A DNA stretch of 48,838 nucleotides, taken from positions 434,001 to 482,838 of the forward strand of contig BAAIJX010000014.1 of the NCBI GenBank assembly GCA_054600435.1, read 5' to 3'. This DNA is from Neophaeotheca triangularis. Its lineage: Eukaryota. The notes below the pieces were generated by a model, which made no database searches, was not told where the DNA came from, and worked only from the letters and a program-made list of their open reading frames with translations. Shown piece after piece: positions 2,533 to 43,875 of this stretch (position 1 is the stretch's first letter; the number at the start of each line of letters is the position of its first letter). A program made the position numbers and the translations under genes.

Positions 2533-2585
2533 CTGTGGGATGTTAGCGGTTTGAACCGATGTGGATGGGAAATCGAGTCACGTGC
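2533..2585 (-). other. 53-nt GC-AG spliceosomal-type intron within tRNA-Leu, between positions 9 and 10
   Basis: Minus strand GCACGT...GCTAAC(2547-2542)ATCCCACAG; removal restores TG|GCCGAGCGG (A box/D stem). Confidence 0.8.
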
Positions 2586-2625
2586 CATCTCACCCATGTT
2601 GGATGTCGTTAGAGTGGTATCTTTG

Positions 2626-2633
2626 CATATATT
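2626..2633 (-). promoter_or_regulatory. TATA-like element about 32-39 nt upstream of tRNA-Leu
   Basis: Minus strand AATATATG, near the position where TFIIIB/TBP binds upstream of fungal tRNA genes. Confidence 0.35.
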
Positions 2634-4091
2634 CCTTTGTGATAGAGGCTGTGCGGCTGGCTCGGTCATCCAAGGGCGGCTGAAAAATCCGGCGTTGAAT
2701 TTTCTCAGCTTGCCCCGCAGACTGTGGGCTCGAGAAAGTGATCCGTGCGACTAACTCCGTTCTGCTACGAGTCTGACACCGTGGGTTGCTACTGGTTCAC
2801 TCCAGACTCCGAGAAATAATGTCCCCAGGCCCCTAGGTGCCCCTGGGGTTACGAGCGAGATAGTTCCGGGCAGTTGAGAAGAGTACCCGGGGTTGTTCAC
2901 GAGGGTTTGTGTTGAACGTATAAATGTCCATGTTGACTCTATTGCCATGCTCAAGAGCAAATTTACAGCATTGCGAAACCAAAATGAGTCCCCAAGGCTA
3001 AAGAGTCGAGCGGGAGAACGTTAGATTCTCGATAAAGGGGGTAGACAGTAGGCCTGAGTAAAGAAGTGCAGACCAGAGCAGACCAGAGCAGTCTCGTCGA
3101 AGATGACATCGAAGAGCGTAACCAGACTCAGAATGCCATGTTGTAGAGCCTGATGCTACAAGTACGCAAGTATTATTCAAACCGATTCTCAGAAGTTGGT
3201 CGATCTTCTCGAGTCTTCGATCGTCGGACAATGGGCCCCCGATTATCTATAGCTCGAGGACAGACCAAGTCGTTCTGACCTTAATCTCAAGAAAAGGGGT
3301 CGTTCGTCACGGAAGACGGTCGGCCAGGTAGCTGAACGCTGTGATACTCGAACTGTCTCGCGCGTAGGTGAGGACGAGTGACAACACCACGAGCTCTCGC
3401 ACCACCTCTACAATTATAGCAAAGCAAAGCATGAGCATAGACGAGCGCGCTGCGAGTGGCGGCATTGGATTTTGCCGGTATAGGGCTGAGATAGATTGAG
3501 ACAACCTTATTAGTCTTGTCACTTGTGTGGCGTTTTTGGGCGGCAAGCGGCGGTGCGGCGGTAGCTCCTAGCTTTGAAAGGACCATGACATGTGGAAACT
3601 CTGTCATGGTTGTGGTGAGAAACAAGCAAGTTGTAGAGTGGTGAATGATAGCGTTAGTAGCCAGCAGTCACACTGAAGTCATCCTGATTATATGTTGAAA
3701 AAGAGTTGAGAGAGCACGCCGCGCAAAAGCACCCCGTGCACAGCGCAATACCATCATCATCTCCGGTCGTCGTCGATAGCCGGATCCACCAGAGAGACTC
3801 GGGTAGCAGCGCCATTCGATACACTACTTAGTACTACTAGTAGTAGTTACTTACCACTCGCCTATCGTCGTTGCTTGGTTGAAGAATCCGGCCCATGTGT
3901 CAGGCCCAAAGAGTGGATACTTCTTGTTAAAGCTTTGCTAGCCCGCGACTGTTTGACCCGCCGCACTACGTAGGTACGTAGGTACGCAGACTGCGCAGCT
4001 GCACGGGGCACCACCATTCGAGTCGTGACAACTTTTTGCGGCCAACAAACGGCCAACTTTACGACTTTACTCCTCCGACCTCCCACGACCT

Positions 4092-4120
4092 CTCCTCCTC
4101 CTCCTCCTCCTCCTCCTCCT
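4092..4120 (+). repeat. (CCT)n microsatellite in the GUT2 5' region
   Basis: About 9-10 tandem CCT/TCC units just upstream of the ATG at 4140. Confidence 0.85.
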
Positions 4121-4139
4121 TCCCCCAAAACGACAAATC

Positions 4140-11589: not shown

Positions 11590-12534
11590 ATGGGCCGCTA
11601 CAACTTCGCACCTCAGCGGGTCCACCGACAAGTGACTCAACTCCTCGAGACAAAAGGGAGAACCGACCGACCTACCTGGTACCAGATCATAAGCAACACC
11701 CCCCCAAGCGAACGCCTCGTGCGCCCACCGTTGCAAAGACCTCAAAAACCGCAACACAAAGGCGGCCGGAAATCATCCAAGCTCTTCGAACCCTTGCAAC
11801 TGCGATACGAGGAGGACAAACTGCGATGGGAGTACTACAATGACCACCCGTGGGAGCTGGCGCGGCCGAGAGTGGTGCTAGAAGAGGATGGGAGGGATAG
11901 GGAGAAGTGGGATTGGAGTTTGAGTTTATGTAAGCCGGAGGAGATCAGCCTAGAGGAGAGGAGGAGACTGGGGGACAGCCCTGCGGACCTGTGGAAGAGA
12001 CGCATGCAGCAGGGGCAGAGTGCTAGGCCCTTGAATGGTGAAGCGTGAGTTCTGAAAGACGAGAGAGGGTTGCATGCTGGTTGCACAAGGGCTAACGAGA
12101 TGGACAGTGTCGTCCAACGCCAGCGCTGGCTTATTCACAACTCCGACATGTCAATCGCATCCGCTTACGACAAAGCGCGCAAGGAACTTTACCGGGCCCG
12201 GCATGCGCGGGAGGTTGAGCAGCGCGTCGCGCGCGAAGAGGCAATGTACTTTGGTGCTGAGTTTGGGCCTGGCCCAGTGGAGATTGGCATGCAACTCGAG
12301 AATGAGCAGTATGAGAAATGGCGCGTATGGGCCGAGCAGGAGGTTGCCGCGATCAAGCAACTACAAGGAAGTGCGTACACGGGCACGGAGAATGAGACGG
12401 CAGCACTGGAATTGGAGGATGGCAATGAAGCCACAGAGACCGAGACTATGGCCGGCATTGAAGAGGTCAGCGACCAGGTGCCTGCGAGCAAACGGGGGCA
12501 GACGGCACAGGGAGGTGCAGCGCTCCATCCTTGA
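11590..12534 (+). CDS. RSM25: Mitochondrial 37S ribosomal protein S25 (mS23); exons 11590-12044, 12108-12534
   Basis: Motifs P-TWY, LRYEEDKLRWEYYNDHPWELARPRVVLE, LNGEAVVQRQRWL, AYDKARKELY, VAREEAMYFGAEFG; intron 12045-12107 (GTGAGT..GCTAAC..CAG). Confidence 0.93.
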
Positions 12535-17458: not shown

Positions 17459-17511
17459 GTAAGTGTGACTTGCATAACAGCCTTGAGTAATTCTCTGACA
17501 AAGTCCATCAG
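17459..17511 (+). other. Probable 5'-UTR intron of the gene at 17571
   Basis: GTAAGT...TCTGAC...CAG, 53 nt, ending 60 nt before the ATG. Confidence 0.65.
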
Positions 17512-36388: not shown

Positions 36389-38534
36389 TGTTGATCTTGA
36401 CTTACCACTATCTCAGTCCTGGTAAGTGCAAGAGGATGGTGGTTACCTAGGTACCTCATGTGAATTGGAGATGGCGGTCTGTAGGTGCTATCCCACCTTC
36501 CGCCCAGGAACCACACTCGATTGGGAAGGTGCGCTCGTAGCCCATGTCCATCGAATATCGCTTGTCTCCAAATACAACAACGTGCCCTGATGTAGTTCAA
36601 GCTGGCAATGGCGTAGGAGGCATGCTTAGAATCTAGACCGGGGAGGGGACAAAAATAAGAAATTAGAAACGGACCACAGGTCTACGAGGCGAGGCATACG
36701 TTGGTGTAGCGACGATATCTACCAAGGTGCCGCGTTTCCTTCAAAAATTGAATGAAACCTTTCGAGTGGCGGTCGCAACCTGCATCTAAACACCTGCGCA
36801 AGGTATAAACAAGCACTCGAGCACCAAGTACCGGTACTTGCTTTCGCATTGGAGCGAAAAGGCAAGAAGCCCTTCTGCGAATCGACACACACTCTACATC
36901 CGAAGCGCGGGCTGAGACCATCGGCAGAGAGAGAGATTAAAAACTCTCAAGATCTTCGGACATGGGTTCTCGATGATGGTACGTCCACGGCAAAAGTGAT
37001 CTCACGAATGTCGGGTCTCCGAGTCTTAGAATCTGCAGGGTGGGAACCACAGCAGCTTCTGTGAGATTCTGCGCTGCGACTAGCCTTGTTGTCAGGATCG
37101 CGATTTTCCATGCGCATTTTTCTGCAGTCAACCCACACATACATACGAAAGGATGGGCAAACGTCGAATCCCGCTGGCTGTAGTTGGCCTGTGAGAGGCG
37201 TGCAGTGCGATGCGCAGTATTAATATTATTCGCGACGAGCTCCGGCGTCGGTCCTCGAGTTGCGAGCAGGCGAGAGACCGAAGCCTGAAGCCTACTAAAC
37301 GACAGCAAAGAGCGGTACGGCGGAAAACTCTCTGCAAGCACTTCCACCCCCACTTTCCTTAGCAAAGTCTCCACCATCAAACCTTCTGCCAGACAAACCT
37401 TCTGCCAACGTCTCCGTTTCGCTGGAGGCACAAATTATCATTGATTATTCGAGAATCGAGCCCCAGCAAAACCGTTGAGCGACGCGCATCGAAATGGCAA
37501 AGCAATTACAGCATCCGGACGAGAGACGAGCCCCTGATTGGTGCGCAGCTAGGTAGGTAGGTAGTAGCATCCATTCGAGCAGACCTTGCGCGCGATTTTT
37601 CTTCTCGCAACAGCTTTTGCGCTTGTGCCTGACCTCCCCGGCCAATCGTTGGACTAGGTTACGAAAGGCCAGCGGGACGGGTCTGTGGCGCTGATGAGAC
37701 AGCCGGGATCTAGCGCATGGCCCGAAAAGGGCTCGTGTTTGGTTTGCGCTTCACCTTGCCCTTTACACCTAGGTAGCTTGGTAGTGTAGGTACTGTGTTT
37801 GGTATGGAATGGAACGCTTGTGCAGTTGTGCCAGCAACAACGCTATGCAAAAGCATAATAAGATTACCTCGAGGGAATGAGGTTATTAAGGTATTATTGT
37901 TAAGAAGACCATGCTGTCTTGGCTCAACACAAAGGTTCTGCGCAGACGTCTGCCCTGCGACCTCATCCAGATCGACCCGAATTCAGCTCCGAGGGCGACG
38001 CTGCTTGACCGACCCGATGCTTCCATCTTCACAACTCACGCCTGTCCGCTCCCGGATACTCGTGGTAACCTTGGTTAGCCAGACCCACCGCCTGTCAACA
38101 ACGTGCGTGTCTCTTGCCCTCTTTGCCATGTGCCGGCTGGAGAAGGTACCTGGGTAGGTTCAAAGGTAAGGTTGGGTACCTGTAACCTGACCCTACCCTC
38201 TAGGTAGGGAGGCACCTCCCCTCGCCCCGTACCTGCCGATGGCTGTGGCTGCGGCTGCCTTAGCTCAGCCGTTTCAATTGTCCACCTACCTTACCTACCT
38301 ACATAACTCCCCCAGCACCCCCCGACTTCTCTCTTCCCTCCCACACCACCACCACCACCACCAAACTTGTCTGTCATTCCACTCCCTTTCACCCACTTAC
38401 CACACTCTTTACTTTGCACACCCTTGCAACCACTGCTATACAGCACCCACCCGAGTTTCCACTCATCACCCTCACTTCACTTCGGACAGACTACCAACAA
38501 CACACTCCCGTCAACTACGACTACCTCCACCAAA

Positions 38535-43460: not shown

Positions 43461-43875
43461 ATGGGATTCACAACCGGCATGGTAAGCTCCCCCCAAACAC
43501 ATCACAACACAACACAACCCAAACTAACCCCCCACGGCCCAGCTCGGCGGCATAACCCTAACAACAACGCTCCTCTACCTCTCCCTCAACCTCCACGCGC
43601 GCAACCGCCTCCACCAATCCACCCTCCTGCACCAGCAAAGCCTCGTCCTCGACCGCGTCGTCTCGCCCCGCGCTACCGTGCCGCAACCCGTAAGTCGCGA
43701 AGACCGCGCCGGTCTGCTGGAGAGTGCCAAAGATCGCTGGAATGCGGAGTTGGAGGCCAATGTTAGGAAGGTGCAGGGAGCGGATTGGGGGGCGCTGAGG
43801 GAGAGGTTGGAGGAGGGGGTTGCTGGGGTTTTTGGGAGGGGGTTGGAGAAGGGGAGGGAGGAGGTGGGGAAGTAG
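43461..43875 (+). CDS. MIC12: MICOS subunit Mic12 (Aim5) family; exons 43461-43481, 43543-43875
   Basis: Intron 43482-43542 (GTAAGC..ACTAAC..CAG) gives MGFTTGMLGGITLTTTLLYLSLNLHARNRLHQSTLLHQQ...ESAKDRWNAELE...DW, the family pattern. Confidence 0.82.

Follow-up and report, generated by a model that had tools for sequence, protein, structure and literature searches.

Organisation of the locus

Within the window, i.e., the whole stretch of 48,838 nucleotides that was analysed, the minus strand carries at 2594-2384 a tRNA-Leu(AAG) gene with three interruptions, namely (i) between tRNA positions 9 and 10, (ii) between positions 26 and 27, and (iii) between positions 37 and 38 (Table 1). In the raw window, the tRNA gene was detected neither by ARAGORN nor by Rfam. 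Once the three insertions were excised, ARAGORN returned a tRNA-Leu(aag) with a full cloverleaf, comprising the acceptor, D, anticodon, long variable and T arms; the 7-bp acceptor stem is paired at 7/7 positions and the whole corresponds to a class II tRNA-Leu. The gene is isolated, antisense to both of its neighbours, and sits in a 2.8-kb stretch of lower GC content devoid of long ORFs. On the side of the neighbouring genes, a simple repeat, the antisense frame of which reads as a run of glutamate, is present at 4082-4130, just upstream of the start of a glycerol-3-phosphate dehydrogenase gene. As regards the host, Pfam matches in long intron-free ORFs point to a eukaryote, the nearest clusters of the Ndc1 protein encoded in the window are from Ascomycota and its best named relatives, at 42-44% identity, belong to Cladosporium fusiforme, Acrodontium crateriforme, Baudoinia panamericana, and Salinomyces thailandicus (Dothideomycetes, Capnodiales group), one further relative reaching 73% identity.

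Table 1. Features of the split tRNA-Leu(AAG) gene and of its surroundings, with positions given in the window.
Feature	Position	Strand	Description
Putative TATA-like element AATATATG	2626..2633	-	-39..-32 from the mature 5' end; unchanged in strain X2
Exon 1	2594-2586	-	9 nt; 5' strand of the acceptor stem, T8 (2587) and G9 (2586); pairs 7/7 with 2391-2385
Intron 1	2585-2533	-	53 nt; spliceosomal type, GC-AG, between G9 and G10 (2532); donor GCACGT; branch site GCTAAC, its predicted branch A at 2543, 10 nt ahead of the 3' splice site; acceptor CAG
B-box-like motif GGTTCAAACC	2557-2548	-	in intron 1
Branch-site motif CTAAC of intron 1	2546-2542	-	unchanged in strain X2
Exon 2	2532-2515	-	D arm, positions 10-26; carries the A-box core (2534-2524 with the AG of the intron)
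Intron 2	2514-2456	-	59 nt; GT-AG, spliceosomal type, inserted at 26/27; donor GTTAGT; branch site TCTAAC (CTAAC at 2471-2467), its predicted branch A at 2468, 12 nt ahead of the 3' splice site; acceptor TAG
Exon 3	2455-2445	-	5' strand of the anticodon stem and loop to G37; anticodon AAG at 2448-2446
Intron 3	2444-2426	-	19 nt; canonical tRNA intron at 37/38 by position and length
Exon 4	2425-2384	-	position 38 to the discriminator A; native B box GGTTCGAATCC at 2405-2395
Two T6 runs	2363-2358, 2353-2348	-	Pol III terminator-like; the first begins 21 nt past the 3' end of the gene
Heuristic mRNA-intron candidates (examples)	12045-12107, 17459-17511, 38154-38207, 43482-43542		53-63 nt; from ORF joining

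Intron 1 was already assigned to the junction between G9 and G10 in an earlier note on this DNA, which the minus-strand reading bears out; the range then delineated, 2533..2587, does encompass the intron but also takes in T8 and G9, the intron proper starting at 2585. The consensus of the internal A box is TRGCNNAGTGG. That this box is broken by intron 1 is correct insofar as it is split at G9/G10, but it is only clipped, as G10-G19 stand together in exon 2 and the terminal AG of intron 1 completes AGGCCGAGCGG (2534-2524), where the sole mismatch to the consensus is at T8. The native B box, thought to lie about 180 nt from T8, was measured at 182 nt. The GC donor indeed keeps TGGC, as read at 2587-2584. 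The idea that the start of the A box would explain the rare GC-AG type nonetheless fails, because the three other introns known at 9/10 (see below) use GT donors and because position 11 of a tRNA is a pyrimidine anyway.

Related split tRNA-Leu genes

Metagenome contigs were scanned using as a query exon 2 with AG directly before it, and the 51 loci retrieved were sorted by inspection into (i) four fungus-type split tRNA-Leu genes, namely L019, L020, L036, and L051, (ii) 19 termite-gut tRNA-derived repeats, (iii) 11 chance matches in protein-coding sequence, (iv) 10 AT-rich marine partial tRNA-Ser copies, (v) two archaeal-type multi-intron tRNA-Ser, and (vi) five unclear loci. When run against the GTDB prokaryote genomes, the same pattern gave seven loci, none of them fungal.

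The intron at 9/10 is common to the four split tRNA-Leu genes and further non-canonical interruptions are found in three of them, i.e., L036 with two long introns, one following position 28 and one within the variable arm, L019 with a long T-arm intron (62/63), and L051 with an 11-nt insert in the T loop. As for the window gene, ARAGORN and Rfam detected a tRNA in none of these four loci. In all four of the genes that are complete, the 9-nt exon 1 is gene-specific and pairs at 7/7 positions with its own 3' acceptor strand, at a distance of 53-95 nt from exon 2. The exons of L036 are those of the window gene except for a compensatory change from C-G to T-A at 28:42, while the introns differ in sequence and in position. 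Together with the four differing acceptor stems, all paired 7/7, this change at 28:42 provides covariation in favour of the tRNA structure. The window gene is a member of a small family of split tRNA-Leu genes overlooked by standard tools.

Several observations concern individual members of this collection. L036:1-230 is a near-identical tRNA-Leu(AAG) with four interruptions, at 9/10 (truncated by the end of the contig), at 28/29, at 37/38 (30 nt), and in the variable arm. Its 28/29 intron lies two bases away from the 26/27 intron of the window gene and the two sequences are unrelated, which suggests either intron sliding or independent gain. In L051, the 9/10 intron is 95 nt long with GT-AG ends, and the 11-nt insert in the T loop of this tRNA-Leu(CAG), at L051:581-591, passes a simple test for a bulge-helix-bulge (BHB) structure (central helix 4/4, outer helix 3/3), its boundaries being ambiguous; L051 may thus combine spliceosomal-type and non-canonical endonuclease-type introns in a single gene.

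As for the remaining loci, the AT-rich marine copies of tRNA-Ser(GGA) (L004, L006, L010, L011, L021, L037, L042, L044, L045, L048, and L055, the latter a Pelagibacteraceae record) start at G10 and end at an encoded CCA with unrelated sequence upstream, and they look like partial tRNA duplicates at sites of mobile-element integration. L014 and L016 are tRNA-Ser(GCT) with long inserts ahead of G10 and within the T loop, i.e., an archaeal-looking multi-intron gene. The tRNA-derived repeats (L001-L003, L005, L008, L009, and 13 further loci) have a common D-arm sequence and a GT-rich tail, originate mostly from insect-gut metagenomes, and are probably SINE-like elements of the host.

Nature of the long interruptions

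Across the five tRNA-Leu genes, i.e., the window gene, L019, L020, L036, and L051, there are eight long introns, all starting with GY and ending with AG. Seven of them are 50-59 nt long and the remaining one 95 nt. In 7/8, CTRAY is present with its branch A placed 10-13 nt ahead of the AG, this distance being 34 nt in L051. In the window gene, the GY...AG limits of introns 1 and 2 fall exactly at the boundaries restoring the exon sequence. A BHB motif, defined by two 3-nt bulges and a 4-bp helix, was found in none of the eight long introns, the central helix being paired at 2/4 positions at most, and at exactly 2/4 for both long introns of the window gene. By the same test, the anticodon-stem helix beside intron 3 pairs 3/3. 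The GY, CTRAY, and AG signals combined with the lack of BHB indicate that the long interruptions are spliceosomal in type and not of the endonuclease type; they are presumably removed by splicing.

A rough, heuristic ORF-joining scan of the window yielded putative mRNA-intron candidates of 53-63 nt with CTAAC or CTGAC, which would follow the grammar of the long interruptions. Among the four introns at 9/10, no alignable similarity was found beyond the splice signals, and no repeat family was found among the introns considered here.

Comparison with a close strain

The sole true ortholog compared comes from a DNA run of a close strain, X2, which has diverged by about 2.5% in the flanks of the gene. 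Among the differences listed, which do not include those within about 30 nt of contig ends and thus touch exon 2, intron 3, and part of exon 4, none falls in the exons or in intron 3 and 15 fall in introns 1 and 2 (uncorrected p = 0.0002). With the count restricted to the reliable zones, 0/47 exon bases and 15/99 intron bases differ (Fisher p = 0.003). In the uncorrected count, the splice signals are free of listed differences (0/28) relative to the other intron bases (15/84; p = 0.02), a contrast that weakens to 0/19 and 15/80 (p = 0.07) in the reliable zones. Four of the listed differences affect intron 1 (2539, 2566, 2569, and 2574) and 11 affect intron 2. Of the latter, 10 are concentrated within the 21 positions of 2475-2495, to be compared with the 2.5% or so of the flanks; this segment may have been replaced or shifted as a block instead of having accumulated point changes. 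As regards expression, RNA contigs from two metatranscriptomes and one presumed RNA run cover the neighbouring glycerol-3-phosphate dehydrogenase gene, none of them bridging the tRNA gene, and are uninformative on splicing.

These data bear on the view that the locus is a tRNA pseudogene in decay, or a copy that insertions have inactivated, with intact Leu(AAG) genes elsewhere being sufficient for the cell. From 2381 on, the 3' part of the gene recurs in other X2 contigs, from which it follows that other Leu genes exist, and the rejection of the locus by the standard finders would also fit with decay. Against it, all exons are intact and form a perfect cloverleaf, within the gene, the differences listed between the strains fall in introns and in no exon, both long insertions bear full splice signals at boundaries restoring the tRNA, and the same design recurs in four other genes with covarying stems. 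A pseudogene is considered very unlikely. On the contrary, the split gene appears real and is probably functional, in a Dothideomycete fungus.

Transcription of the split gene

Several features around the gene are those of a Pol III transcription unit. A run of at least four T is present no more than 55 nt downstream in 5/5 split genes (T6, T6, T4, T5, and T7), the base rate in the window being 0.12-0.16 per 55 nt. In the window gene, T6 runs follow the 3' end and the longest internal T run is 3. The earlier note had remarked that the introns hold no run of T4 or longer, which is correct, and none was found inside any of the 13 interruptions of the five genes; as TTTT is also missing from 81% of shuffled intron sets, this absence is no evidence for Pol III. 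Besides the element of the window gene (Table 1), L019 exhibits a TATA-like ATATAT at -40..-35. Altogether, the downstream T runs and the TATA-like elements favour Pol III. Of note, GC comes right after the first downstream T run in 4/5 split genes, giving TTTTGC (2357-2363 in the window, and the 3' flanks of L019, L020, and L036), and three of the trailers start with ACA; this could reflect a terminator context peculiar to the lineage.

Recruitment of the spliceosome normally goes together with Pol II transcription, which lends some plausibility to a different scheme, where the split gene would be a Pol II unit spliced co-transcriptionally and RNase P and RNase Z would release the tRNA, while the A and B boxes would be retained solely as tRNA structure. 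A TATA-like element can serve Pol II as well and the tRNA-Sec of T. brucei is transcribed by Pol II (PMC2943599). The systematic presence of T runs directly downstream of the five genes, compared with their base rate, speaks against this scheme, as do the solitary position of the gene antisense to both neighbours in a stretch devoid of long ORFs and, weakly, the lack of T4 in the interruptions. In addition, the Pol III U6 transcripts of S. pombe undergo splicing, fungal U6 being a Pol III gene with up to four spliceosomal introns, and some such introns are also present in the rDNA of ascomycetes (PMC5855946), so that the splicing of non-Pol II transcripts has precedent. Transcription by Pol II is deemed unlikely.

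Transcription by Pol III comes with some unusual geometry. The A-box core lies 62 nt inside the gene, so an ordinary TFIIIC-guided start would fall within intron 1 and something unusual must set the start. The native B box GGTTCGAATCC is intact and lies 118 bp from the A-box core, beyond the upper limit of the natural A/B spacing in S. cerevisiae, i.e., 31-93 bp (PMC11724288). The two halves of TFIIIC are held together by a linker that is flexible (PMC11724288; PMC4090602).

The B-box-like motif of intron 1

The B-box consensus reads GGTTCRANNCC. All of its invariant positions are matched by GGTTCAAACC in intron 1, which, as first pointed out in the earlier note, lies immediately before the branch point, one base ahead of CTAAC. 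This motif was proposed to be a compensatory TFIIIC site keeping the gene under Pol III transcription. In its most explicit form, the proposal is that GGTTCAAACC functions as a start-proximal TFIIIC (tauB) site, offsetting both the clipping of the A box and the remoteness of the native B box, as in the U6 gene of S. pombe, for which a B-box-like element in the intron had been rightly quoted (PMC5855946).

Several lines of evidence are consistent with a working site. In mononucleotide shuffles of the three introns, the 10-mer GGTTCRANNC occurs in 0.13% and the 9-nt core GTTCRANNC in 1.1%, i.e., a chance probability of 0.0013-0.011 for a motif that was picked post hoc; over the 48.8-kb window, GGTTCRANNC has three matches on both strands vs. 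4.04 expected from shuffles. The 10-mer GGTTCAAACC is identical to the native T-arm/B box of L019. Transcription has to start ahead of exon 1 in spite of the internal location of the A-box core, and, 28 bp ahead of the motif, TGGGTGAGATG (2596-2586) conforms to a loose pseudo-A pattern, TNGNNNANNNG (PMC11724288). The motif is also unchanged in X2, though with four changes in 53 nt this has a 42% probability of occurring by chance and is uninformative. Given the consensus fit, the low chance probability, and the identity to the T arm of L019, TFIIIC could well bind GGTTCAAACC.

A required function is another matter. The GGTTCRA motif is not conserved in related introns: even in the form GTTCNANNC and on either strand, it is absent from the three other complete 9/10 introns (L019, L020, and L051) and from the seven other long introns, corresponding to a frequency of 1/4 among complete 9/10 introns and 1/8 among long introns. 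In L036, the B box is even further away from the start of the gene, yet the three introns visible before it are without the motif, the 9/10 intron being truncated by the contig. With respect to geometry, the spacing of 30 nt from the start of the A box (T8) to the start of the motif was given accurately, and the gap thus left between the split A box (2587-2577) and the motif is 19 bp, compared with 31-93 bp in natural genes; moreover, pseudo-A boxes are reported not to stand in for real A boxes (PMC11724288). Relative to the real A core at 2534-2524, the motif is upstream, and it lies 143 bp upstream of the native B box. Unlike in S. pombe U6, where the intronic B block is the only one, an intact native GGTTCGAATCC is present at 2405-2395, at no more than 118 bp from the A core, and the flexibility of the TFIIIC linker is a further point against a role of the motif. 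In short, the motif agrees with the B-box consensus and departs from functional B boxes in A/B spacing and in conservation within like architecture.

Two possible origins of the motif were considered as well. A hairpin origin was rejected, as the fold of intron 1 is ordinary (-5.5 kcal/mol, z -0.87, with 39/200 shuffles folding equally well), and the CGGTT/AACCG palindrome is not used in the minimum-energy structure of this intron. Alternatively, the motif could be a relic, the 3' half of intron 1 deriving from T-arm-like sequence by partial duplication or as filler DNA, with the branch site having evolved within it. In a gapped alignment of intron 1 with the T arm of the same gene, GGTTC(A/G)A and ATCCCAC, separated by a 9-nt gap holding the branch site, give 13/14 identities, a result equalled by 30/5000 shuffles. 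This gapped score is driven by the GGTTCRA already counted, however, and the ungapped local alignment is not significant (641/2000 shuffles). Furthermore, X2 alters the ATCCCAC part at 2539, and the other 9/10 introns show nothing alike by eye, C-rich 3' ends being usual in these introns. A T-arm relic is regarded as highly improbable.

Taken together, GGTTCAAACC is most likely a fortuitous match without a required promoter role, and our estimate is that it will prove dispensable. That the intronic motif is a functional B box is unlikely, and the same low probability is attached to the fuller proposal of a tauB site compensating for the displaced boxes, as in S. pombe. Of the initial suggestion, the Pol III-type features of the gene thus stand, whereas the compensatory site does not, considering the missing motif in related introns, the geometry, and the intact native B box.

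Proposed working of the gene

The favoured explanation, held with moderate confidence, is that of a genuine nuclear tRNA-Leu(AAG) gene of a Dothideomycete fungus which depends on two splicing systems and is most likely transcribed by Pol III, GGTTCAAACC being fortuitous. Accordingly worded as a sequence of predicted steps, (i) the upstream TATA-like element would set the start ahead of exon 1, (ii) TFIIIC would recognise the exon 2 A-box core, which is almost intact, together with the native B box at a distance of 118 bp, (iii) Pol III would transcribe the gene as a unit of 211 nt, (iv) transcription would stop at the T6 runs, (v) the spliceosome would remove the mRNA-type introns at 9/10 and 26/27, and (vi) tRNA endonuclease and ligase would remove the canonical intron at 37/38. 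A bolder version, in which the transcripts of essential Pol III tRNA-Leu genes in a lineage of Dothideomycetes pass obligatorily through the spliceosome, with up to three mRNA-type introns per gene besides the canonical one, and in which intron 1 brings a working B box near the start to anchor TFIIIC, is judged quite improbable; if true, the solution found in S. pombe U6 would have been independently re-invented inside a tRNA gene.

Relation to known systems and significance

In the textbook view, the spliceosome is for mRNA and a few snRNA and rRNA genes, and tRNA endonuclease together with ligase is for tRNAs. Non-canonical BHB introns are found in tRNA genes of red algae and nucleomorphs. 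They also occur in archaeal tRNA genes (PMC4090602). Like those tRNA genes, the split tRNA-Leu genes are interrupted repeatedly outside the canonical site, D arm and T arm included. The archaeal, red-algal, and nucleomorph introns are short, contain a BHB, and are cut by the endonuclease, whereas the eight long introns described here failed the BHB test and exhibit GY, CTRAY, and AG. In the literature searched, i.e., open-access full text and bioRxiv, spliceosomal introns in tRNA genes were not found to be reported, and in the text of a broad review on tRNA introns there is no word starting with "spliceosom" (PMC4090602).

Among non-Pol II genes, the closest parallel is the U6 snRNA gene of S. 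pombe, where an mRNA-type intron holds the B block (Tani and Ohshima, 1989; Frendewey et al., 1990; via PMC5855946). Similarly, the window gene combines Pol III features (TATA-like element, A box, and T-run terminator) with an intron of spliceosomal type and a B-box match inside. It differs from it by a native B box in exon 4, by a tRNA as host, and by related introns at the same position which are without the motif. Spliceosomal introns have been described in fungal U6 (up to four per gene), U1, U2, and U5, as well as in ascomycete rDNA (Takahashi, 1993, 1996; Bhattacharya, 2000; Canzler, 2016; via PMC5855946), and there too several short introns with canonical signals reside in a non-Pol II gene, with unrelated sequences and with positions varying by lineage. 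In the list given there, tRNA is missing (PMC5855946). In addition, tRNA, unlike U6, does not lie close to the spliceosome's active site, and the reverse-splicing explanation put forward for U6 is consequently not obviously applicable.

As a possible source of introns in tRNA genes, introner-like elements come from the same fungal class, which is known for recent gain of spliceosomal introns (Dothideomycetes; PMC4457414; PMC11282704). Among the introns considered here, by contrast, no repeat family was found, and 50-59 nt is an ordinary intron size. With regard to the motif of intron 1, extra-TFIIIC (ETC) sites are B-box matches standing alone, to which TFIIIC binds in the absence of Pol III (PMC11724288). 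GGTTCAAACC is likewise a lone B-box match outside the normal A/B arrangement and could putatively bind TFIIIC; unlike ETC sites, it is located inside a presumably transcribed gene, upstream of a real B box.

If the favoured explanation is true, tRNA would join the few non-Pol II genes in which spliceosomal introns are found, and U6 would not be the sole Pol III transcript amenable to splicing. The failure of the standard tRNA finders on such genes would be accounted for as well, and the tRNA sets of fungi may look incomplete as a result. Beyond these aspects, the gene constitutes a natural test of the tolerance of TFIIIC and TFIIIB for displaced A and B boxes.
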